A model generated the notes under the pieces. The model was not told the DNA's origin. It did not search any database and saw nothing but the letters and a program-made list of their open reading frames with translations. DNA of 64,000 nucleotides. Source: Blasia pusilla (lineage: Eukaryota). Positions 25,701 through 62,360 of this stretch are shown in pieces. Numbering within the stretch: position 1 is the stretch's first letter; each line of letters opens with the position of its first letter. The stretch spans positions 48,546,001 to 48,610,000 of the forward strand of contig CM114271.1 in assembly GCA_050084515.1 (NCBI GenBank). Direction: 5' to 3'. Both the position numbers and the translations under genes were made by a program.

Positions 25701-26804
25701 GGATCCGTAAAGAGAGCATTACCTACTAAACGCAAGCTTCTGCAACACATAAGACCAATATTCAAGGAACTAGGCACACGACATTGTAGTGGTGTCTCCA
25801 TCTCGTAGAGTTAAGGCATTCTTTGAGTCAATCATACTTTCTCAAAAGTTGATAAATTGCGAGCCATGATTTATAAGGTGTGAGGTTGCGGTCGTCAATA
25901 ATAAAAAATCATTTTTGTTATTAGTCGATATTGTGAGTCAGTCAAGAAATTTTAATTTCTTATAATCTATACGAGGCCAAAAAAATTTCTTTGAGTTCAT
26001 GAGTTTGTGTCATCGATTTTTTCTATGAACGAATCCATCCATTCTTTCACTTTACATGTTACGATCTTTTCTTCAAATCCATCCAATCCCTTTCTCCACT
26101 CATTCTTATCTTTTGAGATTGGATCCCTTCTTTTGTACATAAAACAAAGACGAGGCTTGGCAGGTAGAGGTTCATGTGTGCATCTAATGTCCATCGACAA
26201 GTCAGTCCACCATAGCTATAAATATTTCACGTGGTCCTACAACTCTAGAATTAGATATGTTGAATACCACCTAGCTTTCACTTGCTAGAAGAACAATAAA
26301 ACCGGAGCCTAAGTTGGAGGATCACATGATCATATCTTGGTAAGACTTGGAAATTTAAATTTAATATTGTACTGGAGATTCTTTCTTTGACTTTGAAAGT
26401 TTCATTTCCAAGAAGTGTTCTTCTCCCAACTTTAGATTCGTGAGTCTCCCATATATTGGGAATTCAATTGATCATTTATCAATCATTGTCACATCTTTTA
26501 GGATGAATTGATAAGTATCCCTAAGGCGCCTTTGAGAAGATCAAATGAAGGCCTAAAGAGGTTGAGGATAACTTGTTGAGGACTCTGTCGTGCGCATACA
26601 TATCGCTACACAACATACATCGCCGGTCACATCTACACCACACAACACCGATCTTCCCCACACACGGGTCAATCCACACATGTACAAAAATCAACTCATA
26701 CATAAACATGGAGATCACACAACCGCCCTTCTAGCTAGAAGTTGGATCCCCCCAACTCCAGATAGAAAATATCACATCTCTATGACATGACCTACTAATA
26801 TACA

Positions 26805-26950
26805 CATCTCGCACACATCCATCGTCCCGTGGGAACCACATCAAGAGGGGGGGGGTGATACATGACAAATGCCAACCTTCAGAACAACCATCACATATCA
26901 CATACCAACATGGTGGCTGCACCCCTTGCAGATCCGCACAACATACACCT
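26805..26950 (-). pseudogene. PHD finger at the integrase C-terminus of element C
   Basis: Across small frameshifts it reads LRCMLCGSARGAATMLVCD-GCSEGWHLSCITPPL...GRWMCARC, a C4-H-C3 pattern. Confidence 0.85.
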
Positions 26951-28053
26951 CAAGCTTGCCGGTACCGCTGCCAAGCTCGGATCCACTGTCCCGTCTATGT
27001 TCGGAAGATGACATGACGCACAATTGCGCACATGATCCTTCCAAACCATACCATCTCGTCCCTCCAACATGAGGACTCCGATCAGTAATACCTCACGCAC
27101 ACGTAGGATCGTGCGCCCTGCAGTGACATCTAGCATCGTGGGTGCCGCCTGTTGTCAATACACGTAATCTCCAAGATGAAACCTCCTAATCCCTAGATGA
27201 TAACCTCCTCCACGAATGGTCGCGTACCTCAATGTATCTCTATGGTGAGCAATAGCTAAGTTCTCAAAGGCCATAGGCATAATTCTACGAAAAACCTCCG
27301 CCCTCTGAGAACATACGTGTACCCACACATCTGGATCATCAAGATCTAACACCTCTGCCATGTCACGTCGAATCGCTGCAGGTAAATCTGGCTCTCTCCC
27401 AAAGAGCAAAAAGTACGGTGAAAATGACGCCAAGGATGCCTGCCGACTAAAGCAATAACCCAGAGCCAACCATGGTAATTGTAGGTCCCACTCCCTCAAC
27501 TATCCCTACTGCAAGCCATACTTGCACAATCCTCTCTTCACCGTCTGTACCACTCTCTCCGCCAACCCATCCGCCTAAGGATGATCTCTGGACGTGGTGC
27601 GGTGATCTATCAGCGCCTGATCACACAAGGCTTGAAACTCTCCCTTTAACTCGGTACCCTGGTCAGTCAACACCTCCGCCGGTGCACCAAAGTGACTAAG
27701 CACATGATCTAGAAATGCATAAGTTGTTCCCTTGCTCGCCTTGTCCGGTAGTGCCACCAACTCTATCCACTTGGAGAAATGCTCCACCATGACCAACACG
27801 TACCTATGATGACACCTCGTCAATGGCAAAGGTCTCGCAAAGTCTAAACTCCACCAATAACCTAAACCCATAATCGGCAAAGGATGTAACTGCGGAGTGG
27901 GAGCATTGAAGGATGCTCGCACTCTGTCACATACCATGCATCTGGCCACAAACTGTTGTACCCCAGTAAGCATGCCGTGCCACCAATACTAAATCTGGGA
28001 TAAGCTGTAAGTACGCTTCACTCCAAAATGTCCCAACTCCTCATAGGCATGTC

Positions 28054-31000: not shown

Positions 31001-33464
31001 GGTGACGTTGGGAGTTGGACCAGCTGAGGTGTTACAGCTGGCCGCCACGTTGTGTGAGCGTGGAGAGATGACTGCTTCTTGTTCAGAGGTAGTTGAGGAG
31101 GTGTTGGACTTGCCCTCAGAGCCAGTGCTCAAGACGTTCCCCACAGAGTCATGGCATGCAGCAGCGGCAAAGTTGGTAGATATGCCAGCTCGACCGGCCA
31201 TAGAGCGAGCAGTGGTGATACCTGGAGTAGTGTTACTGGATAACCAAGTTGGAGTATTTTTCTTGGTTAGTCCGACGTGGACAGTATATCACCCGCAGCG
31301 CGTCCTACTTGATTCGGGAGCGCAACCCTTGATGTTAGGGAAGGCGGCGTGTTTAGCGTTGGGGTTATGGAAGGCCGATATTGAGCCTTGTCCCTTCCAG
31401 ATACAGACCTCGATTGGGGGCGTGTCACCCACGCAATATATGACTTGACAGGAGATAGTTGTCAAAGTCCAGCCAGAGCATGCGACAGATAGTGCTATGG
31501 TGCACACACGTGCGATTACGACACCAGCTGAGACGTACGATGTGTTGGTGGGGAGTACAGTGTTATATCCCCTGGGATTCATCTTGGACTTCTGGGAGGA
31601 GACCGTTGCTTATCGGTCAGGGTGGCAATCAGGTGACGGCCAGATGAGTCAGTTAACCGTGCAGTTTGCGGGACGAGGTGGTCGATCATGAGGCGAGTCT
31701 GTGACCACGTTGGCGGCTTTCACAGATAGTGTTAGCTGGCCAGAAGAGTTGTTGGAGGAGAATGCACATGCGGAGGATGTCGTAGTAGCGGATAGTCCCA
31801 CGGAGTGACAGGCCATGGCGGGTGTCTCTTCCCATGTTGGCGAGACCTCTTCACCATTGTGGAGTACGACTCGAGAGCTATAGAGGAGTGTCAACGACCT
31901 CGTGAGGCAGGCGTGGAGTCATGCTTTTATTCCAGAGCAGCGAGAGTCACGTGGCAATCGGGTTCTTGGAGTGGAGACGTTTACCCCACTGGATACCACA
32001 CCCGTTGTGTGGCAGTGCCCAGAGGAGGGTGTTAGGGTGTTAGATCTCTTCGGAGGGATTAGCACGGGATTGGCTGCAGTATTGCAGGCGGGCATACGGG
32101 TGCATACCTTTATGTGGAGAGAGATGATACCGCGCGACCAGTATCATTACGTCACGTGGCGCCATTGGTCTAGAGGTATCCTGAGTTGTTGCCGATATCT
32201 GCAATACGGGGATATCAGCATACACTACCCGCCAACATCTCTTTGGTAGGGGCGCAGGATCTTGAAAGAGTTGGCACCATTCATTTGGTGAACGTGTCGT
32301 TGTTGGGAGACACTCGTGCATGTGTGATGACGATTGTGTATCAGGTGAGGTCCTGGTGGGGACCTGCTGTGTTATTAGATGCGGCGAGAGTTAGATCACG
32401 TGCCTATCGTCCACGACTATGGTGGACAAACTGATACCATGAGAGGTACTGAGTCAAGCATACGATGGAGTCCAGAGAGCACCACATCTCACAATGGATG
32501 CTATTTTGGGCTCAAGGCGTCGATCTCAAGTGGTGACACGGGATGATAGACCACCGTTGGCCATGGCCAATAGGGTGGGGGAGTTGAGGGCAGCCTTACC
32601 TACGTTGGTGAGCTTCCCAACATCCCATGCCTTTCGTCAAGGAGGGTCAGGCATGATTTGGGATGAGGTGGCCAGAGCATTGGAGGAGCCTACAGCATAT
32701 GAGCGCGAGCGCGCCATGGGGTTTGCTACCGGTACTACGGCGGTGCCAAGGATGATTGAGGCATCCCGGAGACAGGTGTTGGGGCAGGCAATGGACCTCA
32801 ACTATCTCACATGGATAGTCAGCCTAGGTATGGCTGAGGAGAGATGGATGTGAGTGTCATCCATGTCGTCACGTCCACGAGTTGGACCATTGCCTACAGG
32901 GTCTGTACAGGCATTGGCTGGGGGCGAGACGAGGAGAGATAGGCACCCATGGACTTCCTGGGACGTCGTTCAAGCAGAGAGTGCGAAGGTGGCCAGAGTA
33001 GCACATGTTCATTTTTTGGATGTAGAGCATAGTGTAGGAGGTCAAAATGGAGTGGCTGTTGCAGAGGTGGCTAGGGTTGCTACATAGCAACCAAAGCCAG
33101 AGGTTGCGTCCTCTCCAAGTGAGGTCACAATGGAGACTTGGGAGCCTGTGATAGGTCTCAAGTTGATAGGAGGAGAGCGAAGGTGAGTTCATAGGTTTCT
33201 GAGAGGGCATGTCAGTTGTTTTGCTTCAGTATGAGAGACTTGGGTACGCTGAAGGGTCCTGGCATACGGATTGAGTTGGCTAGTGATACGCCGATCTTTC
33301 GTCAACCCTACATGTATTCTGATATGAAGCAAGCCTTGATTTAGAGCAGGAGTCAGGACTTGTTGGAGGCAAGACTTGTGGAGTTATCACATGGGGAGTA
33401 TGCATCTGCCACAGTCATGCCGACAAAGAAGGATATGTATGGCAATTAGACAGATAGGCAGATG
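28054..33464 (+). mobile_element. Element B (subfamily 2), 3'-truncated, inserted into the integrase of C: A'-gag-protease-DNMT-start of RT
   Basis: Starts TGTCACATCTGGG. A' repeat 28054-~28545 has TATATAA at ~28328. Gag 29404-29808, CCHC knuckle CDCCHRYGHTRDMC ~30320, protease VLLDSGAQP ~31300, DNMT motifs 32030-32830, RT start PIFRQPY ~33290. Confidence 0.85.
32030..32830 (+). pseudogene. DNMT3-like C5 cytosine methyltransferase domain of element B (catalytic PC motif deleted)
   Basis: Reads VLDLFGGISTGLAAVLQAGIRV, LLDAARVRSRAYRPRLWWTN and ERERAMGFATGTTAVP..SRRQVLGQAMDL. The sequence jumps from TIHLV directly to NV, removing motif IV up to motif VI. Confidence 0.85.
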
Positions 33465-35437
33465 CATGCCAACCGGGCACCATCTCCTCATCACTCTCTC
33501 CGTGCCATCGAGCTCCTGTGTCGTCTCTCTGACTCGGACATGGGTTATGACTCAACCCATCCGCATCCTGGTTCAGCCGACCTAGCCTATGAACCACCTC
33601 AAACTCATACTCCTATAGTAATAGAGCCCACCTGGCAAGCTTTCCCGTAAGCTTGTCGGACTCCATCAACCACCTCAACGGCTGATGATCAGTGATAAGT
33701 GTGAAAGGGTTGTCAAATAAATAGCACCTGAAATGTGCCACGGCCCACACTACAGCCAAGCACTCTCCCTCAAAGGAGCTGTACTTCGCCTCTACACTGT
33801 TGTTCGATCGGCTCGCGTAAGCAACAATGAACTCCCTCTCCTCGTCATCCCTCTAAGTAAGCACTGCTCCTAGACCCAACATGCTCCAATCCGTATGTAA
33901 CTGGAATGGGCGACCCTTATCTGGTCTGTGTAAAATGGGTGAGGATGCCAACTTGTCCTTGAGTTCTTGAAATGCTTGCTCCACATCATCTCCTCACAAC
34001 CAAACCTGATCAAGTCTCGTCAAGAAGGTCAAAGACTTTGCGATCGCACTAAAATCCTTGACATACGGTCGATAGAAGTTCGCCAGTCGAAGAAATGCTT
34101 GGACTCGACTCACATCTGTAGGGCGTGGAATCTGCGCAGTAGCCTCTATCTTTGTCTGCTGAACGCCTAACCCACTCGGGTATATGGTGTGTCCCAAGTA
34201 CTCAATCTGCTCCTGAAAGAATCTGCACTTTCCTGGATGTAACTTCAGTCCATGTAATTGCAATCGCCGAAACACCTCCTCCATGTGTCGCTCATGCTCC
34301 TCAACCGTGGAACTGAAGATAAGAATATCATCTATGTAACATCGTACAAAATCCAGGCCATCTAGAATCCTATCCATCACTCTCTGAAACTCTGCAGGCG
34401 CGTTCTTCAACCCAAATGGTAAGAACCGCCACTGATACAAGAAATCTCTCCCGAACCAATCTATCCCCCATAATGTTATCTTCTCCCTGTCCTCCAACCT
34501 CATAGGAAGCTGATGATAGAGATCTAAAGTACTGAAGATCTTTGCATGCCCTACCACATCAAAGATCTCCTCAAGAGTAGGCATGGCGTAACGATCTGAC
34601 CTCGTCTGTCGGTTGATAGGTCGGTAATCTCCACACATCCGCCTATCCATCCAATTGCCATACATATCCTTCTTCGTCGGCATGACTGTGGCAGATGCAT
34701 ACTCCCCATGTGATAACTCCAGAAGTCTTGTCTCCAACAAGTCCTGACTGCTGCGCTGAATCAAGGCTCGCTCCATATTGGAATACCTGTAGGGTCGACG
34801 AAAGATCGGCGTAAAGATCCTTCTCATGTAAAAATAAAGAGTAGTAAAAATGGCACACCCGGCCTAAAACTCCACTCCTCAATCTACATCGGCATATCGA
34901 GCCTCGTCCATCCTGTGCTATCAAGGAATCTGGACGCTAGCACCCTAGTCCTATCTCACACACATACCAGAGAGGTGCTCCAACGGCCCATCATGAGAAA
35001 GATGATTTAGGAAAGCCATCTTCCTCTCTTATATAGGATTGGGATGAGCCAAAAGGCTCTTCCCCTAAAAATAGCCCTCCCCTTGGTAACCTGCGCGCAC
35101 AGGTTAGCAAAGGCGGGTGACCTGGTCAACAAGTCACCCGGTTGTGAAAGACCTCAATATGAAAGTTATTAGAAACAACGTTCCTAACACAATGGACCTA
35201 TCCTCAACCTCATCCGACAAAATGGGAAAAAGTTACACTCAAGATAGTCTGCTGGCTCCTACGCCCTATCCACAATGGATCTCGGCCTATCGGCTATCCA
35301 GATGTGACAACTTGACTAACGTGAGAGAGCATGTTCTCCCTTTGTTTGGCTCATTCTCAACTATATTTAGGAATTTGCTAATTTGGGTAAGTTCCTATTA
35401 AGAACATAGTTGACTTTCTACCTTTGAAAGTGGCCCT

Positions 35438-35956
35438 TGTCACGTCCTTTAGGATAGATCGGTGAGATCTAGTAGAGCGTCTTCAAGAGTAGTGGAGGAT
35501 AGGCCTAGGAGGTCGAGGATGACCTGCTGAAGCCCCGGGGAAACCTGAGAGAGCAGGTTTCCCCTTCGTTTTTGCTCATTTGGAACCATATTTAGGAACT
35601 TACTATTTTAGGTAAGTACCCTTTTGAGTATATGATCGATTTTCTATTTTTGGTGAGTGGCCCTTGACCTCCTACATCAGGTCAAGACCTAAAGAGGTGA
35701 CTTGGGAGAATAGGTTACCATGGAGAGAGCTTGGGAGAGGGGAGGGGTATATATCCCAAGGAGAGAGAGCTTGAGAGCTCATTCTCTCTTTGTTGAACCT
35801 CTTGGCATGAGGCGGCGGAGCTATGGTCCCTTGCCTTGTGAGAGTAACCCAAGCCTTTCATTAGGAGAGTGGGTTTGGTTTGACATGAGAGAGAGAGTGC
35901 ACACCTTTGAGAGTTATGGTATGAGATCGTGTAGAGAGAGATTGGATTTTACTTTA
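35438..35956 (+). repeat. Repeat A1 (5' terminus of element E)
   Basis: Direct repeat of 46481-46997 with roughly six substitutions and one GA indel by eye. TATATAT box at ~35748. Confidence 0.92.
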
Positions 35957-36660
35957 CAAGCCTCTCATTAGGAGAGTGGGTTTGGTTTGACATGAGAGAG
36001 AGTGCACACCTTTGAGAGTTATGGTATGAGATCGTGTAGAGAGAATGCGAGAATGAGAGAAAGAGAGAATGCAAGACAGAGAGAGTGAGAGAGCTTCTTG
36101 GGGGAGCTCACTGGTCACTCGCTGTTTTTGCAGGTTGGGGACCGTGTTCCCCGTTCAACGGCTCATGGGAGTGCTCATCGGAGCAAGGGTTGCTTGGATA
36201 GTTCTTTGCATTTGCCGATTTTTCGTGTGAAAGAGTGGCGCGCGGAAGCGCTGCCCAATTTTTGATAGGGATTGAGTATGGGGGCGGGTTGCCCCATGCC
36301 GATGCTTTCGGGAGAACCATGTCGCTTGCTGATTTGGATTTTTATAGGTTTTACATTTTTGTTGGGAGGAATCAATGCGGAAGCGCTGCCGAATGTTGGG
36401 TAGAAGAAAAAGACATTGGGCTTTACGACAGTCCCCGTCAGTTTTTACTCGAATGTTTGATTCCAAATAATTTTTGATACTAGCGTAGATCGTGAAGTTG
36501 TGCATGTTGTGCAATAAATAGTGCGCAATTTGGAGTTGTGAGCAAAAAGTTATGGTCAATCTTGCAAAACTGCCATTGCTAGGCGATTTTTAGGGTTAAA
36601 TTGTGCAAACCCTAAACCAGCCGCCATAGTGGCGGCGGCCGTCGCCGTCATAGTCACCGT

Positions 36661-36760
36661 CAACCGTCAATGGTCAACTTTCACCGTCAATGGTCAACCA
36701 TCACCGTTAATGGTCAACCATCACCGTCAATGGTCAACTGTCACCGTCAATGGTCCACCG
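36661..36760 (+). repeat. 20-bp minisatellite (TCACCGTCAATGGTCAACnn, about 5 copies) in the 5' leader of element E
   Basis: Tandem units directly visible. A shorter related array lies at ~59815-59878 in element G. Confidence 0.85.
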
Positions 36761-39700
36761 CCCGTTTTCCACCCTTGGTTGCCATTGCCGCCGTTACGGA
36801 GTGGAGGATCTTCCACAACATTCGTTGATTCTCGGACTTGCGTCGCCATCACGTACTTTGTTTTGGCGGCTATCGTCATCAACCTGTGATGGCATATGAC
36901 CTCCCGTTATAGTTTTTGAGTTTTGATTTCCTGCTGCTATGTTGTGATTGGTAGCCGCTCAACGACGATCGGGTACCGTGCCGTGACGCCCGTAGCCGCA
37001 ATGCGCCGCCGATTGCCGCGTCGTGCCGCTCGTGGCCGCACCGCACCATCTTGATTGCAGAGCCGCTCCGGCATTGTGGAGCAGAGTGTGGGTTTATTGT
37101 TGATTGAGGAGGGTATGCCTCCGAGTGCCGCATCCCATCATCGAGGGCCGTGTCGTTCGTAGCCGTTTCGTGCCGCGCACAACGCCGCATCGTTCCGCTG
37201 GAACTGCACCATCTATCGAGGAGTTTTGAGCAACGTCAATACGAGAGGAGTATGACTTGCTGATTGGAGGAGTTGTCTCCACGACTAAGTTGGGGTCAAG
37301 ATTCGCAGTTGCTAAGGATCGACATTGACATGTGTTCAAGTTACCCATTCTGGTCCTTTAGCATGCACGTGTGAGGGATTCTGGGATTTGGGTAGTTTAT
37401 TTGGGGATATTGGGTGTGTGGATGTTGAGAGCATCATTTATGTATGTGATTTAGGGGACATAGACCTGTGTGGGATGTCCGGAGTTGAGGGTAGGTTGTC
37501 AATGAGATGATAGCCTGGTCGATTTGCCGCACCACGCTGCTTATTGCCGCACGTTACATGTCTCGGGGAGGGAGAGTGTAGATCGAGTGCCACATGTTTG
37601 GGATGAGTGATTGAGGGATTACTCACGAGGCAAGAGTGATTGGGTGAGAAGGGCACGAGGGTCATCACGGTGTCCGTTCGGGACTTTGAGAGGCGAGGTG
37701 GTGAACCCGAGAGTAGCTCTAGAGGTTTTACCTAGAGTGGCGTGAGGTTCCGAGGGTCTTCACTTCAGGGACCACCTCGACCTCCTTCTGTGTCATCGTC
37801 AGACGAGGGGGAGGGTGTAGAGGAATTTGTGAGCACATCGCTAGACATTGTGAGTGGTCCTACCAGTTGGGCGTACGAGATAGACGACCGGGGTAGAGGA
37901 CCGCGTAGGTTTTTAGGTGTAGTAGGTACGATTGAGTTGCACGATTTCATAGCAGAGTTTAGGAGTTGGTGCGACTCCCAGCGGGCCAGGAACTCTAGAG
38001 AGTTTAACCCGTTTACAACATGGAACGGTATGTTCCAGCATTTAGAGGGGGCATCCATGGACGATTACCATGAGTTTTCCCACAGATATGCCCGGGAGAT
38101 TGAGGCATGGCGACTCTAATACGACCCACACTATGTGTCATGGACGGAGCCGTTCCTAGATGAGGAGGAGAATTAGGAGAGGCTACTTCCTCTTCCACTA
38201 GTGATGTTTTAGGAGGGGTTACTCGCACTGGAGCAGTTGCACCGTCTAGTCGGGTTTGTCCCACGTTCAACCCCGTGGTTGAGTTCTTTGCTGAGTTGAG
38301 GGCGAGCTACCAAGGGGTATGGACGGAAAAGTTGCCGAGCATCCACAACTTCTAGAGGCGCCCAGGTGAGAGTTTACGTGAGGCTTACACTCACTTGCGC
38401 CGTTTGATCAACGTCACTCAGGGGGTGACAGAGGCTCAGGCTATCCAGTCATGATACGCGATGTTGGACCAGACCCTGCGGCCACGGGTGCGGGAGGGGG
38501 TGCTTCTTATGAGCACCTCCCCTATGTTGAGAGATGTCTTTAGGACCGCCGAGAAAATTCAGCGCAACATAGCGGAGGAGAGCGTAGCCACCATGGGTTC
38601 TGGACGAGAGCAGTCGCGATTGGCTGCACCACCTATGCAACAACGTGGACTCCGAGATAGGTCAATTGTGGCACCACGAGCTCAGGGAGGATACCGGGAG
38701 CTCGTGACACAGAGACCTGCGCCTTCATATATGGCTCAACAGCAGCCGCCTACTATTACTTGTTAGTCAAGTGATGGAGCCCATCATCAGCGCCATTGCA
38801 CTCGTCAAGGTCATGGACGTATGCCTCAACATGGAGGAGGAGATGGTGCTGCACCAGGAGGTTATCAGTGTGACTATTGTGAGAGGTATGGTCATACACG
38901 CGCCAGGTGTTTCAATTTACATCCTGAGTTACATTCGGACCGAGGGCCAGAGAGGGCACCAGAGCGAGTAGCCGGTCCGGGTGGGCCTAGAGATTGTGCA
39001 CCAGGTGGTCCCGTTGGGGGACGAGGAGCTGGAGCTGCCCGACAGGGTGGTGGAGCTGCCCATGGAGGAGGTAGAGTACCACCACCTAGATGCGCCGAGG
39101 GAGACGCCGGACGTGAGGTTGGGATGGATGCTCAGATACAAGAGCTACAGGAGCAGATTGCCACTATGGCATTGAGGTTACCCTATGCCGGATCCATGGC
39201 ATCGACATCATATGGAGTAGCCAAAGCTCTGGAGGATCTTGGTTGGATGTGCGGGGTTGCCCAAATGGAGGACGCCATAGTTATGATGCGTGGAGCAGCC
39301 GTAGAGTTGGATCCACAACGAGGGGAAATCAGAAAACAGACTAGGCTTCCTTAGTCTTTCACGTTGTCCGAAGCGATGAGGACCCCATCGATGGGTCCTC
39401 ATCAAGGTTCCTTGAGAGCTCGTGATGTTGTTGGTGTGCAGGCATGGAGGGTGATGGGAGAAGCAAGTGCGATGACTTCTATTGTTGATGCTCAGGAGGG
39501 GCATGTGTCGAGCACATTGTTGGGGGCGGCCACCATTGTGTACCGCACTCCTTTATTTTATGCTTCCGATGTTATGACGTTGGGGGGTACGCCCGCCGAG
39601 GCTTTTCGGCTGGCCGCGTCGCTATGTGAGCGCGGAGTTGGAGTTCCTGCATCACGTTCAGAGGTGATTGCAGAGGAGGTGATGGACCTGCCCTTGGAGC

Positions 39701-40589
39701 GGATGCTCGGACCGTCCACGTCAAATTCATGGCAAGCTGCGGCTGCTAGGATGGCGGAGATGCCCGCTAGACCCGCGATAGAGCGTGCCATGGCGTCTCC
39801 TGGTGTTGTGTTGCTGGATAACCGAGGAGAGGTCTTCCTGTTGGTGAGTCCTGGAGGTAGAGCTTTTAGTCTGCATCGCGTCTTGTTGGATTCAGGAGCG
39901 CAACCCGTGATGTTGGGGAAAGCGTCATTTAGAGGATTGGGCTTGACGAGAGCCGATGTGGAGCGTTGTCCATTCCGGATACTGACATCCTTGGGTGGAG
40001 CGAGTACCACACAGTATATCACCCGACAAGAGGTCGTGGTGAGGATTCGCCCGGGACATCCTACAGATGAGTCCATGGTGCGCGCAAGGCGATAGTAGTG
40101 ATCGATGAGAGTCCACGACGTCTTGGTTGGTGGAGCAGTGTTATACCCAATGGGGTTTTCCCTGGATTACTGGGAGGAGTCAGCGTCCTACAAACCAGGA
40201 TGGCAGTCAGGTGATGGGCGCCTTAGCTCATTACCCGTTTGATTTACAGGTGCAGTGATCAAGCAACGGCCAAGAGAGATGGCGACCTTAGCAGCATTTA
40301 GCACTGCCATCACTTGGGCTAGTGATTTGATTGAGGGATATGTCCATGCATAGGATACTCTCGTTCTTGATATTTCTATGGAGAGGAGTGTTATGGTAGC
40401 TGCATCATTCCGTGGAGGAGAGGTGCCGTTGTGGGGCTCGATTGAGGAACTTTGACGATTGGCAGATGAGCACGTGCAGACCGCGTGGAGCGTGATGGGT
40501 CTGAGGAACCCGAGGTTGCAGGGAGTGCTACAATGACACCCTTGGATACCACACCCATTGTGTGGTGTATCCCGGGGGAGGGTATTTGA

Positions 40590-41530
40590 GTGTTAGATCT
40601 CTTTGGAGGGATTAGCATCGGGTTAGCTGCTGTTTTGCAGGCAGGAGTGCGAGTACAACAGTACCTGTATGTGGAGAGTGATGATGTTGCAAGGCGCGTC
40701 TCACTACGACATGTGGCGTAGTTACGCCTACGTTTTCCCGACTTATTGTCTGCATGCGCACTACATGGGTACTAGAGTTCCCTACCAAGGAATATTTTGT
40801 TCTTGGGGGCGCAGGACTTAGAGCAGGTAGGGACCATTGATTTGGTCATTGCCGGTTGGCCATGTCAGGTCCAATCGAGTGCTGGACGAGGCAGCGGGTT
40901 GGCGGACACACGGTCTAGGTTGTTTTGGGAGATGTTGAGGGTCTTACGGCAGTTGCAGGAGCACCAGTCTCGTTCTCCAGCCAATATTTTGGAGAATGTG
41001 CCGATCTTAGGAGACTCCAGGTCACGGGTGGTGACGAATGCTCATCAGGTGTGTGCGTGGATCAGCCCAACAGTGTTCTTGGATGCGCCAAGTGTAGGTT
41101 CTAGAGCCCATCTCCCGCGTCTATGATGGACCAACTTGGTGCCCCATGCGGTGTTACGGAGGGCGAGAGTGGAGCGCCCCTCCCATTTGTTAGTGGATTC
41201 CATTCTAGGTCCAGGTCGTTGATCACAGGCAGTGGGGCATGATGATCGACCACCGTTGACTGTGGTCAACAGGGTAGGCAAGCCACGGGCAGCCTTGCCC
41301 ACGTTTGTGAGTTTTCCCACTTCCTATGCATACAAGGAGGCCGCGCCTGGCTTGGTTTGGGATGACCAGGTTCAGCGATTAGTGGAGCCCAACGCCGACG
41401 AGAGAGAGCGAGGGATGGGATTTCCCACAGGAGTGACGGCAGTACCGTCAGTGTCAGAGGCATCACGACGCCATCTCTTGGGTCAAGCGACGGACCTGAA
41501 CTGCTTGACATGGATCCTCAACTTGGGAGT
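40590..41530 (+). pseudogene. DNMT3-like C5 cytosine methyltransferase domain of element E
   Basis: Motif I VLDLFGGI, motif II YVE, motif IV DLVIAGWPCQ, SRLFWEMLRVL, motif VI ILENV, motif VIII FLDAPSVGSRAHLPRL*WTNL, motifs IX-X ERERGMGFPTGVTAVPSVSEASRRHLLGQA. All are in one frame, the same frame as the start of the downstream RT. Confidence 0.93.
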
Positions 41531-44112
41531 GGCTGAGCAGCGTCGTATGAGATCGCGACAGATCATAGCGGTTGCGTTGGTGAGCCCCATGCCTACCGAG
41601 ACGGTGGAGGCAATGGCTGGGGGCGAGACCCGAGGAGATCGGGAGAGACACCCTTGGACTTCTTGGGATGTTTTGCAGGTATGCAAGGAGATGATAGCCA
41701 CAACATCGAGCATGGTTTCGGCCACTGCACGTGGAGGAGATTAGAGTTTGCAGTTGGCTGCAGGAGAGCGGCCGAGTGTTGTCGTTCGAGACAGGATTGC
41801 ACCATAGCAACCACCGATACCCGCGCCGGAGAGTCCTACCGTAGTCACGATGGAGACTTGGGAGCCAGATATGGGCCCTAAGTTGACAGGAGGAGAGCGG
41901 CGCCGAATACATCAGTTCCTCAGGAGTTGTAGGAGCTGCTTTGCGTTGAACATGGAGGATTTGGGTACGTTGAAGGGACCGAGGATCCGCATTAAGTTGT
42001 CGAGTGATACGCCGATCTTTCGACGACCCTACAGGTACAGTGATATGGAGAGGGCTCTGATTCAGAGTAGGAGCCAGGACTTGGTCAGAGCAGGACTAGT
42101 GGAGATGTCGCATGGGGAGTATGCATCTGCCACTGTCATGCCCACCAAGAAGGATGTGCATGGCAACTCGACGGATAGGCGGATGTGTGGGGATTACCGA
42201 CCTATCAATCGGTAGACGAAGTCCGATAGGTATGCCATGCCCACCCCTGAGGAGATCTTTGATACGATTGGTCACGCAAAGATCTTGATTCATTGATTTA
42301 TGAGCGGATACCATGTACCCCTATCAGATTGGGAGGACAGCGTAAGACGGCATTTTGGGGCATCGATCCTCACGGGAAGGATTGTTTGTACCAGTGGCGG
42401 TTCTTACCATTTGGGTTAAAGAACGCCCCGTCTGAGTTTCATAGGGTCATGGATAGGATCTTGGCTGGTCTGGATTTTTCTAGGTGTTATATTGATGACA
42501 TCGTAGTCTTTAGCACCACGGTTGAGGAGCATGAGCGACATCTAGAGGAGGTGTTTCGACGATTGCAATTACATGGGCTGAAGCTGCATCCAGGCAAGTG
42601 CAAGTTCTTCTACGACAAGATTGAGTACTTGGGTCATACGATATACCCAAGGGGCCTTGGTGTTCATCAAACGAAGGTAGAGGCTATCTCACGCATTCCA
42701 CGCCCTACAGATGTGAGCCGTGTTCGCGCATTCATGGGATTGGCGAACTTCTATCGGCGATACGTGAAGGGATTCAGTTCGATTGCGAAGCCACTAACCT
42801 TGCTAAAGGTGGATCACGAGTGGCACTGGGGGGATGAGTAGGAGTGAGCATTTTAGTTGCTCAAGGACAGGTTGACGTCTGCGCCCATCTTGAGGAGACT
42901 GATCAAGGGGCGTCCTTTCCAGTTGCACACAGATTGGAGCATGTTGGGGCTTGGAGCGGTGCTCATCCAACATGATGATGAGGGTAGAGAGTTCATGGTG
43001 GCTTATGCTAGCCGCTCGAACAACGTTGCAGAGGCGAAGTACAGCTCGTATGAGGATGAGTGCTTGGCTACGGTGTGGGCTGTCGCGCATTTCAGGTGTT
43101 ACTTATTCGGCAATCCCTTTACCATCATCACTGATCATCAACCACTGAAGTGGTTGATAGAGTCCGACAAGCTTACATGGAAGCTTGCGAGATGGGCTAT
43201 GTTGTTGCAGGAGTATGATTTTTCAGGTGGTACATAGACCTAGGACGCTCAACCAAGATGCAGATGGGTTGAGTTGTAACCCATGACCGAGTTAGCGAGA
43301 TGCGAATGGAGCTCGATGGCATGGAGAGAGTGATGAGGAGTCAATGCCAGGATGGCACGCGTTAGCCTATTTAGGCATGTTGGTTATGGAGAGCCAGAGT
43401 GTGGAGACTTCGATGACGAGGTCTAATGGAGAGTCCTTGGATCCCGAGGCCAGTGAGGAGACGAGAGGTGTCCGAGATATTCATGATGATGGAGTAGTCT
43501 TGGAGTACCTTCGTACTGGAAGAGTTGCGAGCACTATGGGTGCTAGAAAGTGAGATCGGATCCTACAGCAAGCCAGACGGTTCCGTTGGGAGGGGACACA
43601 TGTTTTGAGGGTTTGGAAGGATGGCAGAGTAAGCGTAGTGCCGCATCCTTTGCAGAGAGCACGACTAGTGCAGCATGCCCATGAGGAGTTGGGTCACTTT
43701 GGGGTGAAGCGGACGTACATCTTGCTCCAGATTCAGTATTGGTGGCGAGGCATGCATACTGACGTTCAGCAGTTTTTTGCCAGGTGCATGGTGTGTGATC
43801 GGGTCCGAGCATCGTTCAATGCTCCAACTCCACAGTTGCATCCATTACCGATCATGGGCTTAGGGTACAGATGGAGTTTCGATTTTGCAAGACCTTTGCC
43901 TTTGACACAGCGTCACAGTCGTTATGTGTTGGTGATGGTCGAGCACTTCTCGAAGTGGATCGAGTTGGTTGCATTGCCTGACAAAGCAAGTGAGGGAGTA
44001 GCTTATGCCTTCCTTTACAGAATGCTGAGTCATTATGGCGCACCAGGTGAGGTGTTGACAGACCAGAATACCGAGTTTCGGGACGAGTTCCAAGCCTTGT
44101 GTGATCAACCGC

Positions 44113-45371
44113 TGTCGTATAGTAAAATCAATCAGTATATAAATTCCTTCGTCATTAAATGTTAGATAGAATTTCATTAGTATTAAGTAAATTGGCTTAG
44201 AAAAACAAAATTCTTATGTTTAAACCTCTTTATGGTGCCTCTTTTATGCGGGCCCAACTTTAGAAAAGGAGGTAATAAATAAAAGATGACTTTATAAAAG
44301 TAAAGTAGTTGCTTTAATAAAAAGAAAAAGTAGTCTTGGTTGGTGGCTAGTTTGGAAAATATCAAGTGGATAAAAGAGGATATTTTGGAAGAGATAAGAG
44401 GAAATCTACTTGTGTCAAAATGTGATTGGTTAAGCCTTGAGAGGAAGCCATGTGGCACAAGATAAGATAAGCTCTATTTCGTACTCTTGTGGATCCCTTG
44501 TGAGTATATAAAGAGGAGGAACCTTCAAGGATTCATCACCTTCTATTCCACATCTTGAGTCTCTCGTGTCTCTCTCGAGTGTATGTCTTTGGGATTGCTT
44601 GCTCTTCCAATGAGAGTGGATCACCCCTCTTGGGAGAGTAACTTGATCATGGTCTATTCTTCGAGAGGTTTCTAGAGTGTGGTGTGTGTGTGTGGAGATG
44701 AGAGGTTTGTCACCTTAGAGGAGTTTAGTCATACTAAAATAGTGGATGTTTTGGCTTGTTACTTCCCCAATGAGAGTGGATTATCCCTCTTGGGAGAATA
44801 ATTCCGCCAAAATCCATTCTTGAGGAGAGAAAAGAATATCTATCAAGCATGGATAGGGGTGGAGCACGAGTTGTGTCCGACTTTCCTTTCCTCAATCCAT
44901 ATCATGTCAAAGGTACTTTTTGTAGATAGACACTGGTTCACTCGATATTTAGTTTATCACTGTGGGGAAGCGTTCATGAACCAGGTCATGCAATCTCCAA
45001 CTCCGGTGATTCTTCCTATCGTCACATATGGAAGGACATGGGATTGTACTTTATATGTCCTTATATAGCGATCCATGGATGTCAATAGGCCTGCTCAATT
45101 AGGGTTTAACACTAGTTGTGCTATCTTCCTCGTGTACAAGCGTAAAATAGTTTATAAGGATTTTATAGCTAGGAATTTCGGGGTCCGATGTTACAAAGAA
45201 GTGATCGCCTCGGCACTTCCATTTGTGATACCTGTCGTGAGAGAATGGAGAGTCTACATCATAATTTTGTATTGAAAAAGGAGAACTTTTTAGAGAGTTC
45301 ACCTTGCATCGACCGCATCTACCGCAGCTAGAAGGCCCGCCCTTGCTCGAAGAAAGACTCTCGACACGACA
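44113..45371. mobile_element. 1.26-kb solo-LTR-like or mini element inserted in the integrase of E
   Basis: Termini TGTCGT...ACGACA. It splits the integrase peptide CDQ|ALINHRTTSRDHP. 4-bp TSD CCGC/GCGC with one mismatch. AT-rich, non-coding, TATATAAA at ~44506. Confidence 0.8.
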
Positions 45372-46029
45372 GCGCTGATCAACCACCGCACGACTTCGCG
45401 AGATCATCCCGAGGCGGATGGATTAGCGGAGAGAGTTGTGCAGACGGTGAAGAGGGGTTTACGCAAGTATGGCTTGCAGAGAGGTCAGCTAGGAGATTGG
45501 GACATCCATTTTCCATGGTTGGCGATGGGATACAGATTCAGCAGGCATGCATTCTTAGCGTCTTTTTCACCGTACTTGCTACTTTATGGCCGAGAGCCAA
45601 ATTTACCTGTGGCCATTCGTCAAGATGTTGTGAGGTGCTGGACCTTGATGACCCAGATGTATGGGTGCGAGCATGTTCTCAAAGGGCTGAGTTGTTTCGA
45701 AGAGTGATGCCCATGGCGTTCGAGAACTTGGCGATTGCGCAACATCGAGATACGTTGAGGTATGCGACTATTCGGGGTGGTGGTTATCGACCAACTATCC
45801 GGAGGTTTCATCAGGGAGATTATGTCTACTTGCGTGACGGCGGCAAGCGGCGTTGGATGTGATGCAGGCGCACTATCCGAGAGTGCGTGACGTTTTGCCA
45901 TCCGGTGTTCTCTTGCTGGAGGGACGCGATGGTATGGTATGGAAGGACCATGTGCGTAATTGTGCACCATGTCACCTTCCTAACATTGATAGTAGAGTGG
46001 ATCCGAGCTTAGCAGTAATTCCTGCAGGC

Positions 46030-46160
46030 TTGCGTTGTATGTTGTGTGGTGCGGCCACGATGCTAGTCTGTGATGGTTGTTCGAGAGATTGGCATATGGC
46101 ATGTGTGACGCCACCTCTCACTAGGATTCCTCGGGGACGATAGATGTGTCCTAGATGTAC
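46030..46160 (+). pseudogene. PHD finger at the integrase C-terminus of element E
   Basis: Reads LRCMLCGAATMLVCDGCSRDWHMACVTPPLTRIPRGR*MCPRC, a C4-H-C3 pattern with the conserved Trp mutated to a stop. Confidence 0.88.
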
Positions 46161-46350
46161 ATAGAGGAGATACTAGGTAGGTTTTGATCCCGAATTTTTC
46201 TCTGACATGGATGACATGAAGGCGACTAACGATGGGGCCACATGAGCACCCGGACTTCTTGCTCTTAGCGTCCGAGAGATGTATGTCATGGTAGGTAGGG
46301 ATAGATGGCTATCTGGAGTTAGAGGGACCTAACCACCAGGTAGGGGGGCG

Positions 46351-47125
46351 ATTGGAGATATTTTGGTTCTTCTTGTCTCGTTGTTTGGATGCCATGAGTT
46401 AGCAGGGGATCGTGCGTGTTTGTGTGTGTGTTCGATAATAGCGATGTATGTTGTGTAGCGATGTGTATGCGCACGACAACTATCACGTCCTTTAGGATAG
46501 ATCGGTGAGATCTAGTAGAGCGTCTTCAAGAGTAGTGGAGGATAGGCCTAGGAGGTCGAGGATGACCTGCTGAAGCCCCGGGGAAACCTGAGAGAGCAGG
46601 TTTCCCCTTCGTTTTTGCTCATTTGGAACCATATTTAGGAACTTACTATTTTAGGTAAGTACCCTTTTGAGTATATGATCGATTTTCTATTTTTGGTGAG
46701 TGGCCCTTGACCTCCTACATCAGGTCAAGAGCCAAAGAGGTGACTTGGGAGAATAGGTTACCATGGAGAGAGCTTGGGAGAGGGGAGGGGTATATATCCC
46801 AAGGAGAGAGAGCTTGAGAGCTCATTCTCTCTTTGTTGAACCTCTTGGCATGAGGCGGCGGAGCTATGGTCCCTTGCCTTGTGAGAGTAACCCAAGCCTT
46901 TCATTAGGAGAGTGGGTTTGGTTTGACATGAGAGAGAGTGCACACCTTTGAGAGTTATGGTGTGAGATTGTGTAGAGAGAGATTGGATCTTACTTTAATT
47001 GGAGATATTTTGGTACTTCTTGTCTCGTTGTTTGGATGCCATGAGTTAGCATGGGATCGTGCGTGTTTGTGTGTGTGTTCGGTGATAGCGATTTATGTTG
47101 TGTAGCGATGTGTATGCGCACGACA
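46351..47125 (+). repeat. B1-A2-B2 block at the 3' end of element E
   Basis: B1 46351-46478, 2-nt spacer AC, A2 46481-46997, B2 46998-47125. Preceded by purine tract AGGGGGGCG (46342-46350). Confidence 0.92.
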
Positions 47126-49578
47126 CCCTTGATCTTGTAAAGGAGGTCAAGAGCCAAAGAGATAAGGTGTGAGTATAGATTTATGTGGAGAGAACTTGGG
47201 AGAAGGAAGAGGTATATCCAAAGAGGGAGTTTTGAAGCTCATTCTCTTTTTTGAACCTTTTGGCATGAGGCATTGGAGTTATAATCCTTCATGCCTTGTA
47301 ATTAATCCAAACTTCTTATTAAGAGAGTGGGTTTGGCTTGACTTGAGAGAGAGATAGAAATTGTGTGAGAGATTGTAATGCCTTTGATTTACAAAGAGAG
47401 AATGAAGGAATGAGAGCTCTACAATGCAAGAGCTTGATGGTTGTTTGTTGGTTTTGTAGGTTGGGGACTGTGTTTCCCATTGAGTAGTTCATGGGAATGC
47501 TCACAAGAGCAAGAGCCGTCCCATTGTGTACGTCATTGGAGTGGTCTTGATTTACAAAGAGGTAAGGGTTTACCTATGACCATTCGTTACAATGCGAGTT
47601 AGTTATTGAATCTCAAGAATCTGAATGTATGGACATGAGCATGTTCTCAACGGGGTTGACTTGTCTTGGAGTGTTATATACCCATAACGTTCAAGAATTT
47701 GATTATTTCACATCATCAGGATATGTTGAGGTATGAAAATATTTGGGAAGGTGATTATTGACCAAAAATCTACATAGAAGTTCCATCGAGAATACAATCT
47801 CTACTTTCAGTAGACGACCCTCACAATATTGGATGTTATAGCAAGGTGCGCTATCTTCAAAGTGCATGAGGTGTTGCCATCTATATTTAATGTTCTCATA
47901 TTGGAAGGAAGTGATGTTATGGTTTGGAAGAACCATGTGCATAACTTTGCGCCATGTCACCTTCCGAATATTGATGGTACAATTGATCTAACCTTAACAA
48001 TTAGATGCTACTATTGTTAAGATTGCTAACAATTAGATGCTACTATTGTTAAGCTAGTTATATATTGTATAGATTTTCCCGTAGTAACAATAGAAGCTAG
48101 TTATATATTGTATAGATTTTCCCGTAGTACAACCATTCAACCACCATGCTACTCTATGGTGGATGTTTGAGAGGATAGTATATGGCATGTCTAACGCCAC
48201 CTCTCATGATCAGTAGTGTTCTTCAAGGACTATGGATATGCCCCAAACGTAGGTAGAGTAGGTACTAGATAGTCATAGATCTAGACTTGAGTTAATGATA
48301 TGGATGATATGGATGATAAGAAGACGACTAACGATGGAGCCATATGAGCACCTGACCTTTTTGCTCTTAGTGTCCTATAGATGTATGTCATGGTTGGTAG
48401 GGATAGATGACTATTTAGAGTTAGAGAGACCTAACTAGGGGGGCGATTAGAGATATTTTGCTACATAATTGTCTTAGTATTTAAATCACATGAGTGTGTA
48501 TGATATGTAGTGTGCATGTGCTTGAAGGCAATGCCAATCATGTGTGTTGTGTAGCATTGTGTATACGCATGATATCATAAGAAAAATATCTTATGTCATT
48601 TTGGACAAGTCAACACTAATTACATTAATGCATTTTTTAGCAATTGTCAATTGACAATGAGCACATGATTAAAGATAATTTTCAAGGTTTGGGATTAGCT
48701 TTATTAAAATAAATAGAAGTTGACCCCCAAATGTTAACTCATTAAGAACCCAAGTTTGTGTCTAAAGGACTCTTAATTTCTCACAATTAGATCAAATCAT
48801 TCTTGAGTCTAACCATAGCCCTATTTTCTAATATGGTTATGGTTTAATAGTGTGTATTGAATTAGATTTTGGCCATGCAAGTTATAAATCGACCATACAA
48901 TTAATTGTTTTGAGTTTCTCCTCTTAGAATCCCTCACTAAACTTGACATCCAAATCACTTGTTTGGTCATGAAAACACTTATCAACTAGGTTATCATATC
49001 ACATAGTGTCTACACACAACAATCAATAATCATAAAGTAGATTGACAGTATTTTTTTTGGAATGTTGCAAGAGATTGATATTTTCAATGACAGGATGCAA
49101 GTAGAGTAGCTTTTCAAGTAGTAGACTGATTGTCACTCCCTCATAAGATAAGCAAGAGATTCAATTGTAGCTAATGCAATGTAAGAAACATGGTTCTGTT
49201 TCTTCTACCTTGGTGCTCTCATCTATTGCATTCTTGTGCAACACAAGTCACCTTTGGTCCAAGTTTGCCTTTCCCCTACTAGAATGCAATAGATCGCATA
49301 TATTTTGCATTAAAAGAACTCTATCCCCTAAAAGTATTCTAAAGATGAGATAGAATAAAGGATAAGGTTTCTTTAAAAAACTTAGACACTTATTGATGCA
49401 TATGTTGAAGGGATCACATAGTCGCTTGGGTTTGGCATTACACAAGATTACAACCTACTTTGGTAGAGTTGGTCATCTTCAACTCCAAATGAATCAAGTG
49501 GTGAAATGGATTGTGATGGAAATGACACTCTCTCCTTGCAACCATATTCTCAATCCAAGACAAGACTAGGATCCCTTT

Positions 49579-52500
49579 TGTTGTGTGCATCCATATCGTT
49601 ACACAATCCACATCGCTAGTCACATCTACACAACATATCATACCAATCTTTCTAACACATCGGTAGATCCACATACAAACAAAATACACTCGTGCCTATA
49701 CATCAAGACCACACAACTTCCTCCCTAGTTGGCAGTGGGGTCTCCCTATGGCTAACTCCAATAACACATATTACATCTACCAGACATGACCTACAACCTT
49801 ATACATATCTAGCACCGTTGGTGTTGTCATTTCCGCAACATCTTCCAACACATGCTTGATCCCACGCGTTCCACGGAAGCCGGGTTAAAATATTTTATTT
49901 TAGATCCATCTCACCTATCTCTATCTAGAGATATCAATATATCCGTATGTTTTCCTACAACATTGCACCTAGCTTTCATGTTTATCAAAATCTAACACTC
50001 AGATCCTCTTCCAGATGTTGCCACACAATAAGTGTGGTATGCAAAGATATCAAGTCTCCACTCCAAGAGCATAACCATCACCTCAGTATGTCTACTCCAA
50101 GATACAAGCACGGTTCCACACCTACCTTACAAGCTCGTTTGCTACTCAACGCTCGTACCTAGCAATAGTGAAGAGGTCTCACCAATATGCATGCAGGAAG
50201 AAACATCTGCCATGGCATGGCCCTCCGTGGAACTATCCCCTATCAAGATGTCATATGTAGGTGCGTTCCCCTCCATCAACTCTCTTGGCAAGCTAACAAC
50301 ACATGTGAATATTGCCAATGTGGTTATTGTATCGTCATTTGGTCGACCATCATTACGCCGTACAAACCACACTAGTAATTGGTTCACTTGTCCATCACCT
50401 AATCATCATCCTGGCCGATAAGACATTGTCTCTTCCTAGATATCAAGGATGAAACCAAGGATACAACACCTTGCTTCCTACGAACACATCATATGAATCT
50501 ATTGGTGTTGTAATCACACCAGTGCGCACTACGGCATTATTTGATGCAATTATGGTTGGAGTTTGGCAACTTACTTCTGTTGAGTCATGTACTATGTGGA
50601 TGATACGCCCCAAATAGATGTTTGTATCTAAAAGGAAAAGGCTCAATATGGCCTTTTTGTAATCCCAATGCCAAACACCCCGCCTTTCCTAATATCCAGG
50701 GTTGTCCTCTTGAATCAAATAGGACACGCTAGGGGTGATACACTATACCTGTGGGACTAACCAAGCAAAACACTCCAACTTGATTATCCAAAAACACCAC
50801 AAGTGGTGTCACTATAGCTTGCTCCATGGGTAGATCAAGTTGGCATATCCATCAATTTCGTCATTGTAGCCTGCCAAGATTGAGAGGGGGGACATCCCGA
50901 GCACATGCTCCGAGGGCATGTTGATCCACCATCTCCTCAACAACCACCTCTAAAAAAGAGGGAGTTACCTCTCCACATTTACACAAAGTGGTAGCTACTA
51001 AAACATCTCTGCTGGTCCAACTCCATGGCAGAAAATAAAAGAGTCTGACTCACCCTAGTGGCCACCACTTGTCACGTCTTTTAGGATAGATTGGCAAGAT
51101 CTAGTAGAGAGCCTTCGCAGAAAGTGGAGGACAACCTCAAGAGGTCGAGGATGACGTGTTGAGGCCATGGATAATCTGAGAGAGCAGGTTTCCTCTCCAT
51201 TTCGCCTCATTTGGAGCAACATATAGAAACTTACTATATATGGTAAGTTCCCATTTTGAGTATAGTTGACTTTCCACTTTGGGAAATGGCCCTTGACCCG
51301 CTACATGGGGTGAAGAGCCAAGGATGTGACCTGCAAGCATTGGTTACCATGGAGAGAGCTTAATTGGGAGAGGGAAGGGGGTATACCTCCAAGAGAGAGC
51401 TTGAGCTAGCACATACAAGGCAAGGAGGAGCTATGGTCTTCCTTGCCTTGTATGTGTAACCCAAGTCTCTCATTTAAGAGAGTGGATTTGGTTTGACATG
51501 AGAGAGAGAGAGAGAGAGTTCACCTTGTGGGAGCTCTAATTAATTGATTTATTGGAGATATTTTGGTACTTCTAGTTTCGATGCCATGAGTTAGCATGAG
51601 ATCATGCGTGTTTGTGTGTGTGTGTTTGGTGATAACGATATATGTAGCGATGTGTATGTGCACAATACACTTGTGGGCACCATTGGTCATCTAAGCATCA
51701 TAAATGGTGTATGAATTGCCTTCGACAACATAAATGAATTGGGAAATTTTGGCTTGTGGCCCATTGGTCCCCTCTTGTGGGTCAATCTCAACCCCACCTT
51801 AGTGTGGCTTGGTCAATCTCCTAGCACCCTTAGTCACCACCGCCGCAACCTCTATTTGAGTTGGATTGCACATAAATCTCAACGAGTGTAATTTCATTCC
51901 AAATCCTCACATGATGTAGAGGCTAGAGCTAACATAGGTACTCTCAGCTCTGTTTCCATCATTGGTTGTGTCATTGACATAACAACAATCCTCAGCTCCA
52001 AGTGATCGATACGAGTGAGGAGCATCCTCCATCTCCTCTGATTGGTGGTGGAACTCTACCATCTCGGTCCTCAACTCCTCGATCTCCACCAACTCTCTTG
52101 CCTCAAGGCCCTCGGCCTATTTTTAGACATAGCTCTTAGTGAAGATCAAAACACCTATCCCTAGTGCAACCATATCGGTGATAATGGTCATACTATAAAT
52201 TTGGTGGAGCCATCCTAGGTGGCTCATGAGCAATCGAAGGCACCCTCAGACCTCTACCATATTGTGGGCATTCCCTCTGCCTATAGGCCCACCACACATC
52301 TAAGAAGCCAACATTGGTCCATGTTGGCCAACAAATGTCGGTACGGGCCGTTGCCTCATAGGCTCATAATATCCGCCTTGCTCTCTGGGCACACCAACCT
52401 GCTCTCGTGGTATTGGTGCATGTTGGGGCACTTGTGGGGCTACTGGCACTCAAGGACACCTCAACTCCTAGGGAAATCCTATGGTCATAACTTGCTCCTC

Positions 52501-60320: not shown

Positions 60321-60417
60321 GGGTCGACCGTCATTCGGTGTCTACATCGACACCAACATGAGCTTTGTGAGTTATGTCTCCCTCCCTTAAATTTATGACG
60401 TTTTCCCTTATGGTGTC

Positions 60418-61184: not shown

Positions 61185-62360
<1,176 letters not shown>

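Follow-up and report, generated by a model that had tools for sequence, protein, structure and literature searches.

A gypsy-type retrotransposon with split direct repeats in Blasia pusilla and a possible route of its integration from circular cDNA

Retroelements with long terminal repeats (LTRs) and a DDE integrase are generally viewed as inserting a linear complementary DNA (cDNA) by its two ends, and circular forms are regarded as dead ends. For elements of the DIRS order a circular intermediate is usually assumed, and these elements are not known to make a target-site duplication (TSD). Ngaro, PAT and VIPER of that order were described in PMC4157794 as A1-internal-B1-A2-B2, with an internal B1/A2 junction that mirrors the termini. 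DIRS-type repeats in the order A-coding-B-A-B, together with Gypsy domains, were given for KnitGypsy-Dnmt3 in the legend of Fig. 4c of de Mendoza et al. 2018 (PMC5890265), whose section and legends on this element contained no mechanism, primer sites or junction analysis. A literature search, with subscription journals and supplements outside its reach, returned no paper with a mechanism for the A-internal-B-A-B layout in a gypsy element. In this work a window of 64,000 nucleotides (nt) from Blasia pusilla (GenBank assembly GCA_050084515.1, contig CM114271.1, positions 48,546,001 to 48,610,000 of the forward strand) was analyzed, and all coordinates below refer to this whole stretch. It contains Element E (35438-47125), for which direct reading of the sequence gave the order A1-internal-B1-AC-A2-B2, the layout also of Ngaro, PAT and VIPER. 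Element E is a Ty3/gypsy-type retrotransposon with a DDE integrase, a DNA methyltransferase (DNMT) domain and a PHD finger. It resembles KnitGypsy-Dnmt3, as presented in the legends, in the gypsy domain order, the DNMT inside pol and the A-coding-B-A-B layout, and is a relative of that element, not necessarily of the same family; its nearest named DNMT homologues are bryophyte. The layout of gypsy-DNMT elements is already known, and what is new here is a self-priming primer-binding site (PBS), a conserved polypurine tract (PPT) and an invariant spacer of 2 nt. The explanation put forward, to which we assign a probability of roughly 0.55, is that self-primed reverse transcription would define the LTR as B+A, that the ends of the cDNA would be joined, and that the integrase would open the joined molecule at the internal B/A site.

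The two A copies of E matched in 511 of 521 aligned columns and the two B copies in 123 of 128 positions. The true start of A1, TGTC at 35438, lay 2 nt to the right of the place given by the repeat finder; apart from this shift, the head-to-tail junction of the right and left element ends pointed out in the preliminary description was confirmed as GACA-AC-TATC (46475-46484). The insertion ends are TG...CA and the target duplications are 4 bp long in E, in H and in a solo A-B copy, while in C only three of the four bases match (the other copies of the window are named by letters and listed in Table 1). Such ends and a duplication of 4-5 bp are those of Ty3/gypsy elements. E sits within the A of H, an older element that picks up again after B2, and because the flanks of E are the two halves of that A, E is one discrete insertion. 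It departs from the Ty3/gypsy pattern in that the same full LTR is not found at both ends: the left end is A and the right end is B-A-B, with the PBS after A1 and the PPT before B1. Directly after A1, E carries an 88-nt duplicate of positions 415-502 of A and about 15 nt more, so that its PBS was moved about 100 nt from the end of A; a remnant of the site, AAAGAGAGAATG, was read at 36060-36071. This duplication (35957-36071) may have arisen by slippage during priming or strand transfer, or at a later time.

A purine tract directly before B, where a PPT should precede a 3' LTR, had been noticed in E, H and C and was read in the sequence at all three; in H it is TAGGGGGGCG (~48437-48446) and in C, on the minus strand, AGAAGGGCGG (~26723-26733). 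Relatives were examined in 24 metagenome loci, which were fetched through the protein of the PHD region (37-75% identity) with 4 kb of flank and include at least three pairs of duplicates. All 15 distinct loci having B showed a PPT directly before it, which was AAATAGGGGGGC or nearly so in 13 and decayed in 2. Ten distinct relatives (L003, L004, L005, L007, L008, L009, L011, L013, L016 and L019) had the full order PPT-B1-NN-A2-B2-flank. B1-NN-A2 was present in L018, where B2 was not recognised, and L001, L002 and L006 ended as B followed directly by flank; B was truncated in L014, L010 ended too early, and L020-L024 were without B. The expectation of a conserved spacer was borne out, since its length was 2 nt in 13 of 13 junctions (11 from the metagenome and 2 from the window), the start of A in the relatives being placed by the TGTYA motif only. 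The letters of the spacer varied (AC six times, AT three times, AA and GT twice each). A second, more decayed junction that had been noticed in the window is likewise present, as GACA-AT-CATC in copy G. The last 38 nt of B were 97% identical between the subfamilies of E and C, which are about 75% alike elsewhere. Judged from these sequences, the B/A junction is a conserved island of fixed geometry, and the PPT-B1-NN-A2-B2 pattern, recurring in ten distinct relatives, is far beyond chance. The inverted ends are abutted with a short fixed spacer, GACA-NN-TGTC, as at a circle junction. As a separate observation, a TGTC stood 0-2 nt past the terminal ACA of the last B in 3 of the 13 loci with a readable right end (L002:~485-492, L005:~4992-4999 and L009:~4944-4951). 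Past that TGTC no further A homology was detected in L005 or L009, the two loci tested, and the motif could reflect a target-site preference or chance.

Two DNA runs (X1, X2) and two stranded RNA runs (X22, X24), the latter of the same species label, were used together with the window. The sequence from the last base of A onwards was found to be the reverse complement of a segment within A. Counted from the start of the TATA box, this 5' segment begins after 30-31 nt and its 14-nt core after 31-32 nt. J and M have a perfect 14-nt duplex, CATCTTTCTCATGT / ACATGAGAAAGATG, with the 5' arm 31 nt after the TATA box, and the pair of the E family, CTCATTCTCTCTTTGT (46821) / ACAAAGAGAGAATGAG, is present also in F and H. 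The duplex is 14-16 nt long, and at the 7 of 14 positions where the two subfamilies differ all seven changes are compensated. None of 20000 shuffles reached a 14-nt complement, and the predicted 5' end of the RNA paired with the PBS in the minimum-energy folds of all four copies folded. The letters of the E-family PBS, CAAAGAGAGAAT, were found between 46997 and 36079 in 12 contigs of X1 and 2 of X2, and the same joint in 20 (X22) and 10 (X24) RNA reads. After A, no TGG-type transfer RNA (tRNA) site was found in the window copies. A tRNA-type candidate, TGGGGGAGCTC at ~36093 in E and ~60062 in F, was rejected; its distance from the end of A is 32 nt or more, and H and J have not kept it.

With the transcript start predicted from the TATA spacing, the duplex at the end of A would be the signature of Tf1-type self-priming. 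Self-priming was predicted by Neumann et al. 2019 (PMC6317226) for Tf1/Sushi and the plant Tcn1 clade of chromoviruses, in which, as reported there, the PBS by U5 shows complementarity to the transcript's own 5' end and a tRNA-type PBS is absent. E agrees with these elements in its priming site and differs in having a PHD finger and an LTR with an internal integration site, whereas they have a chromodomain and ordinary LTRs. With self-priming from this PBS, minus-strand synthesis would begin where A ends, which would then be the right edge of the LTR; with the PPT at the start of B, reverse transcription would therefore define the LTR as B+A, as the preliminary description had suspected, and B1 would be the 5' part of its U3. 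Neither TG...CA nor an inverted repeat is present at the predicted outer ends of such a cDNA, which would start with B (ATTGGAG...) and finish with A (...CTTTA). Because the ends of reverse transcription and the ends of insertion differ, the A/B joint looks like a pair of joined cDNA ends, which points to integration of circular cDNA, and joining of the cDNA ends before integration would be the simplest explanation for this family.

Sense RNA reads covered the whole element (depth 159.8 against 12.5 in an example bin). Most of them were 90-95% alike to E and therefore come from other copies of the family. Reads with 66 nt or more of A continued past its end into the PBS, which argues for a transcript start inside A. 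In the stretch 46351-46440, expressed copies with a different 5' part of B were observed; 55 reads of X24 diverged right after 46351, and these copies kept the last ~40 nt of B. B thus appears variable except at its integrase-proximal end. Two further joints were seen in RNA only, 46295 to 46793 (4 and 10 reads) and 41971 to 43036 (12 and 6 reads); they lack GT..AG ends and are probably expressed deletion copies, not introns.

It is very improbable that E is an ordinary LTR retrotransposon whose A-internal-B-A-B order was produced by rearrangement at the locus, by tandem or nested copies or by faulty assembly. The window is densely nested with decayed copies, and in copy G the B/A junction is followed by A, PBS and internal sequence as in a tandem array; but E is a discrete insertion with its 4-bp TSD in continuous older sequence, the same 3' order recurs in ten distinct relatives on unrelated contigs, and contigs of both DNA runs support the A-end-to-PBS and A/B joints. 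The layout was also reported independently, in the legends of PMC5890265.

In the proposed cycle, transcription would start in A1, roughly 31 nt downstream of its TATA box, and the first 14-16 nt of the RNA would fold back on the PBS starting at the last base of A, in the manner of Tf1-type self-priming, so that minus-strand DNA would begin at the end of A. The plus strand would be primed from the G-rich purine tract abutting B1. The linear cDNA would then be B-A-PBS-internal-PPT-B-A, with B+A as the LTR of reverse transcription, and within each LTR, at the B/A boundary, the integrase sites TGTC and GACA would be opposed with 2 nt between them. If the two cDNA ends were joined, as in a 2-LTR circle, the A/B joint (46997/46998 in E) would be formed. 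We see no other path from B-A-internal-B-A to A-internal-B-A-B than this joining and a later opening at one B/A site. Nicking of both strands by the integrase after each CA of one GACA-NN-TGTC would leave 3'-OH ends with 2-nt 5' overhangs, and if the molecule thus linearised were inserted with duplication of 4 bp of the target, A-internal-B-A-B would result. Recessed 3'-OH ends with 2-nt 5' overhangs are the normal processed substrate of retroviral-type integrases, and the 4-bp TSDs fit a DDE enzyme. Only A-internal-B-A-B would yield an RNA with R at both ends, which may explain why this is the common full-length form.

Parallels to such a cleavage exist in other systems. In the circles of IS3/IS911 and IS30 the substrate of the DDE enzyme is a pair of inverted ends abutted with a short fixed spacer, and the TSD is short; these are DNA elements, and the junction is made by the transposase itself. 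For retroviruses, the circle-junction model of Panganiban and Temin was abandoned in favour of linear DNA. The junction of a 2-LTR circle joins the true cDNA ends, with 4 nt between CA and TG, and is at most a side route. Integrases of foamy virus and HIV-1 were reported to cut the palindromic LTR-LTR junction of 2-LTR circles (Delelis 2005, 2007; PMC1180852, PMC1905944). As described there, a retroviral-type integrase cuts abutted inverted LTR ends and gives 3'-processed linear DNA, which is the step proposed for the E family; the junction of the circles is end-joined, whereas that of the E family is templated in every LTR, has 2 nt between the ends and would be the main route. A wider claim can be formulated, namely that circularised cDNA is the obligatory substrate of integration in a whole streptophyte gypsy lineage with an ordinary DDE integrase, which would cut a templated GACA-NN-TGTC within the LTR and not the ends of the cDNA. 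This lineage would be a natural case of the abandoned circle-junction route, convergent with the IS3/IS30 circles and the tyrosine-recombinase DIRS elements, and the split direct repeats would be explained. We hold this claim tentatively and put it just short of even odds.

If the proposed cycle is correct, a mechanism would be available for the oddity of 2018, a gypsy element with DIRS-like repeats. Split direct repeats would then be a signature of integration from circles, whatever the enzyme, and the family would offer a natural system to study integrase cleavage of abutted ends. Software that finds LTRs by expecting identical terminal repeats will mis-annotate such elements, relatives of which are present in bryophyte genomes.

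Several results weigh against integration from a circle. The proposal that the integrase acts at the B/A site is in keeping with the boundaries TGTC and GACA and the 4-bp TSDs; the end-joined or circular cDNA is itself deduced from genomic contigs and RNA reads. E is not a working copy, its PBS being displaced by the duplication and its frames broken, and the PBS evidence comes from two subfamilies of one genome and from reads of the same species label. Read begins or ends did not pile up in A or B in the two RNA runs. The RNA depth over the A/B joint (68 and 57) was higher than the number of A-end-to-PBS reads (20 and 10), and reads across this joint indicate transcripts or solo copies that run into B. 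Furthermore, a 2-LTR circle has two identical B/A sites, so that a mirror form, A-B-A-internal-B, is expected about as often as A-internal-B-A-B. This form was not identified in the window and the fetched metagenome loci. In BLAST searches of the 24 loci with their 4 kb flanks, seven A2 sequences matched only 3' copies, and eight B sequences revealed no B with A on both sides. Among the distinct relatives, 11 keep B1-NN-A2 (B2 being seen in 10) and 3 end as B followed by flank; since the 3' end of a mirror form would resemble the latter, at most 3 of 14 copies could be mirror forms.

The A/B joint is also rather uniform between copies, although variability had been expected of joined ends and variants of one base do exist. 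One A is missing at 46997 in 60 contigs of X1 and 9 of X2; among the RNA reads this variant accounts for 9 of 68 and 9 of 57. The joint of the solo copy is TTT/ATTGG, and L007, L015 and L019 each show a one-base difference from their relatives at this point. Lying as it does in a short run of A and T, this variation gives no more than a weak hint of end-joining.

The uniform joint, the lack of an observed mirror form and the ratio of 11 copies with B1-NN-A2 to 3 with B at the flank would all suit a different origin, in which E is a split-direct-repeat element and its full linear A-internal-B-A-B cDNA is rebuilt by a templated route like that of DIRS or Ngaro. The internal B1/A2 would restore both termini, an ordinary integrase would use the linear TGTC/GACA ends, and no circle would be needed; the layout equals that of Ngaro and PAT (PMC4157794; legends of Fig. 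1e and 4c in PMC5890265). The only primer sites found, however, were the PPT at the start of B and the self-priming PBS at the end of A, with nothing purine-rich before A2 and no primer site after a B end. Standard strand transfers from these sites yield B-A-internal-B-A and would leave B2 uncopied. No Pfam match to a tyrosine recombinase (Phage_integrase) was obtained among the 19 open reading frames (ORFs) scanned, the six frames not having been scanned exhaustively. While E shares the split direct repeats of the DIRS order, those elements have a tyrosine recombinase and are not known to make a TSD, and E has instead an rve/DDE integrase, 4-bp TSDs, TG...CA ends, a PPT and a PBS. We regard a templated rebuilding of the cDNA as unlikely.

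Integration by opening of a circle had been supposed to produce three forms, A-internal-B-A-B, A-internal-B and A-B. All three are present with TSDs (only three of four bases in C), but a direct origin of the two shorter forms is not distinguished from recombination, which explains them equally well, as TSDs survive both routes. For these forms we lean slightly towards the view that only A-internal-B-A-B integrates, and that A-B arises from it by ectopic recombination of A1 with A2 and A-internal-B by that of B1 with B2. Recombination within an element keeps the TSDs, so those of H, C and the solo copy fit. The DNA word depth in X1, which is no copy number, was 522215 for A and ~15000-60000 for the internal region, an excess of roughly 10-30 times; it is a rough pointer to many solo copies, which the 519-nt homology of A would favour. 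Against this, 3 of 14 relatives and 2 of 3 full copies of the window end as B followed by flank though B is only ~90-128 nt long, which is not decisive. All the data are compatible with such recombination, which bears only on the short forms and not on the origin of A-internal-B-A-B.

The coding content of E supported its classification. The order of pol, protease, reverse transcriptase (RT), RNase H and integrase with an rve (DDE) core, is that of Ty3/gypsy elements, and the DNMT domain within pol and the A-coding-B-A-B repeats place the element in the streptophyte Gypsy-DNMT3 group. The closest named homologues of the DNMT segment were bryophyte proteins (Marchantia, Sphagnum and Calypogeia, 54-66% identity) and not Klebsormidium. 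P0041, a relative of 1999 aa, unites DNMT, RT, RNase H, integrase and PHD in one protein. No chromodomain was seen, and the C-terminus of E is the PHD finger. Stops and frameshifts interrupt the reading frames of E. Its integrase gene is split by a foreign insertion, which is skipped (joint 44107 to 45372) by DNA contigs and by 21 and 32 RNA reads; the insertion is AT-rich and has its own RNA coverage, with a depth of 32-134. A search of viral_contigs with the gag ORF found no relative.

Table 1. Features of Element E and of other retrotransposon copies in the window
Feature	Position	Strand	Remarks
Left TSD of E, CCCT	35434..35437		same 4 bases after B2
A1	35438..35956	+	starts TGTC; TATA box 35748; predicted transcript start and self-primer segment 35778-35793
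E-specific partial duplication of A (415-502)	35957..36044	+	absent from copy F and from contigs/reads joining 46997 to 36079
Internal region of E	36045..46337	+	ORFs and Pfam
gag-like ORFs, CCHC knuckle	37736-39354	+	ORF list
Protease-like ORF	39355-40095	+	DSG motif only
DNMT, PF00145	40776-41126	+	Pfam, E = 1.4e-11; between protease and RT
RT, PF00078 (RVT_1)	42263-42841	+	Pfam
RNase H, PF17917 (RT_RNaseH)	42857-43237	+	Pfam
Integrase, H2C2 (PF17921) and rve (PF00665)	43554-44107, resumes 45372	+	Pfam
Foreign insertion, ~1.26 kb, in integrase gene	44108..45371		absent in copy C; outside the family
PHD finger, PF00628	45838-46143	+	Pfam; C-terminal
Polypurine tract AGGTAGGGGGGCG	46338..46350	+	core 46342-46349; directly abuts B1
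B1	46351..46478	+	ends GACA
2-nt spacer AC	46479..46480	+	between B end GACA and A start TATC (from TGTC)
A2	46481..46997	+	TATA box 46791; CTCATTCTCTCTTTGT at 46821-46836 complementary to PBS
B2	46998..47125	+	right insertion end, GACA
Right TSD of E, CCCT	47126..47129		pair of 35434..35437
H, old deleted A-internal-B form	26487..48574	+	TSD TCAT (26483-86 / 48575-78); its A hit by C and E
C, A-internal-B form, second subfamily	26586..35309	-	in A of H; flanks ACTC vs ACTT (3/4 match); carries nested J
J	28052-33464	+	nested in C
TATA box (28328), 5' segment CATCTTTCTCATGT (28359) and PBS ACATGAGAAAGATG (28534-28547) of J	28328..28547	+	PBS starts at last base of A
Solo A-B	51070..51667	+	TSD CACT
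F, 5'-truncated	60279-54401	-	copy in window
Decayed junction GACA-AT-CATC of copy G	61289..61298	+	followed by A, then PBS-like TATGAGAATGATG and internal sequence, no B
M	from 62613, runs off window		same pair as J at 62902 and 63075

The window is made up of nested, decayed retrotransposons that belong to one superfamily. C and E lie in the A of H, J lies in C, and the solo A-B copy lies in copy K (~50019-54397, minus strand). These nested insertions could reflect a preference for the family's own sequences or for chromatin, or simply their density. The sequence upstream of B in copy G was compared with the end of A and with the PPT side of the element, and neither likeness beat shuffles, of which 126, 437, 286 and 454 of 500 reached the observed scores; judged by its letters, the junction of this copy would be compatible with either a mirror form or a tandem array.

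Minor features were also observed in and near the repeats. The upstream, U3-like part of A contains a perfect hairpin in E (46580-46607, GGGGAAACCTG-loop-CAGGTTTCCCC), and subfamily J has a different stem that is equally paired (28258-28281, GGTAACCTG-loop-CAGGTTACC). An unrelated ORF-like stretch (60300-61100) lies between the truncated A of F and copy G, and a long (GT)n microsatellite is located within the A of copy G at 61597-61797.

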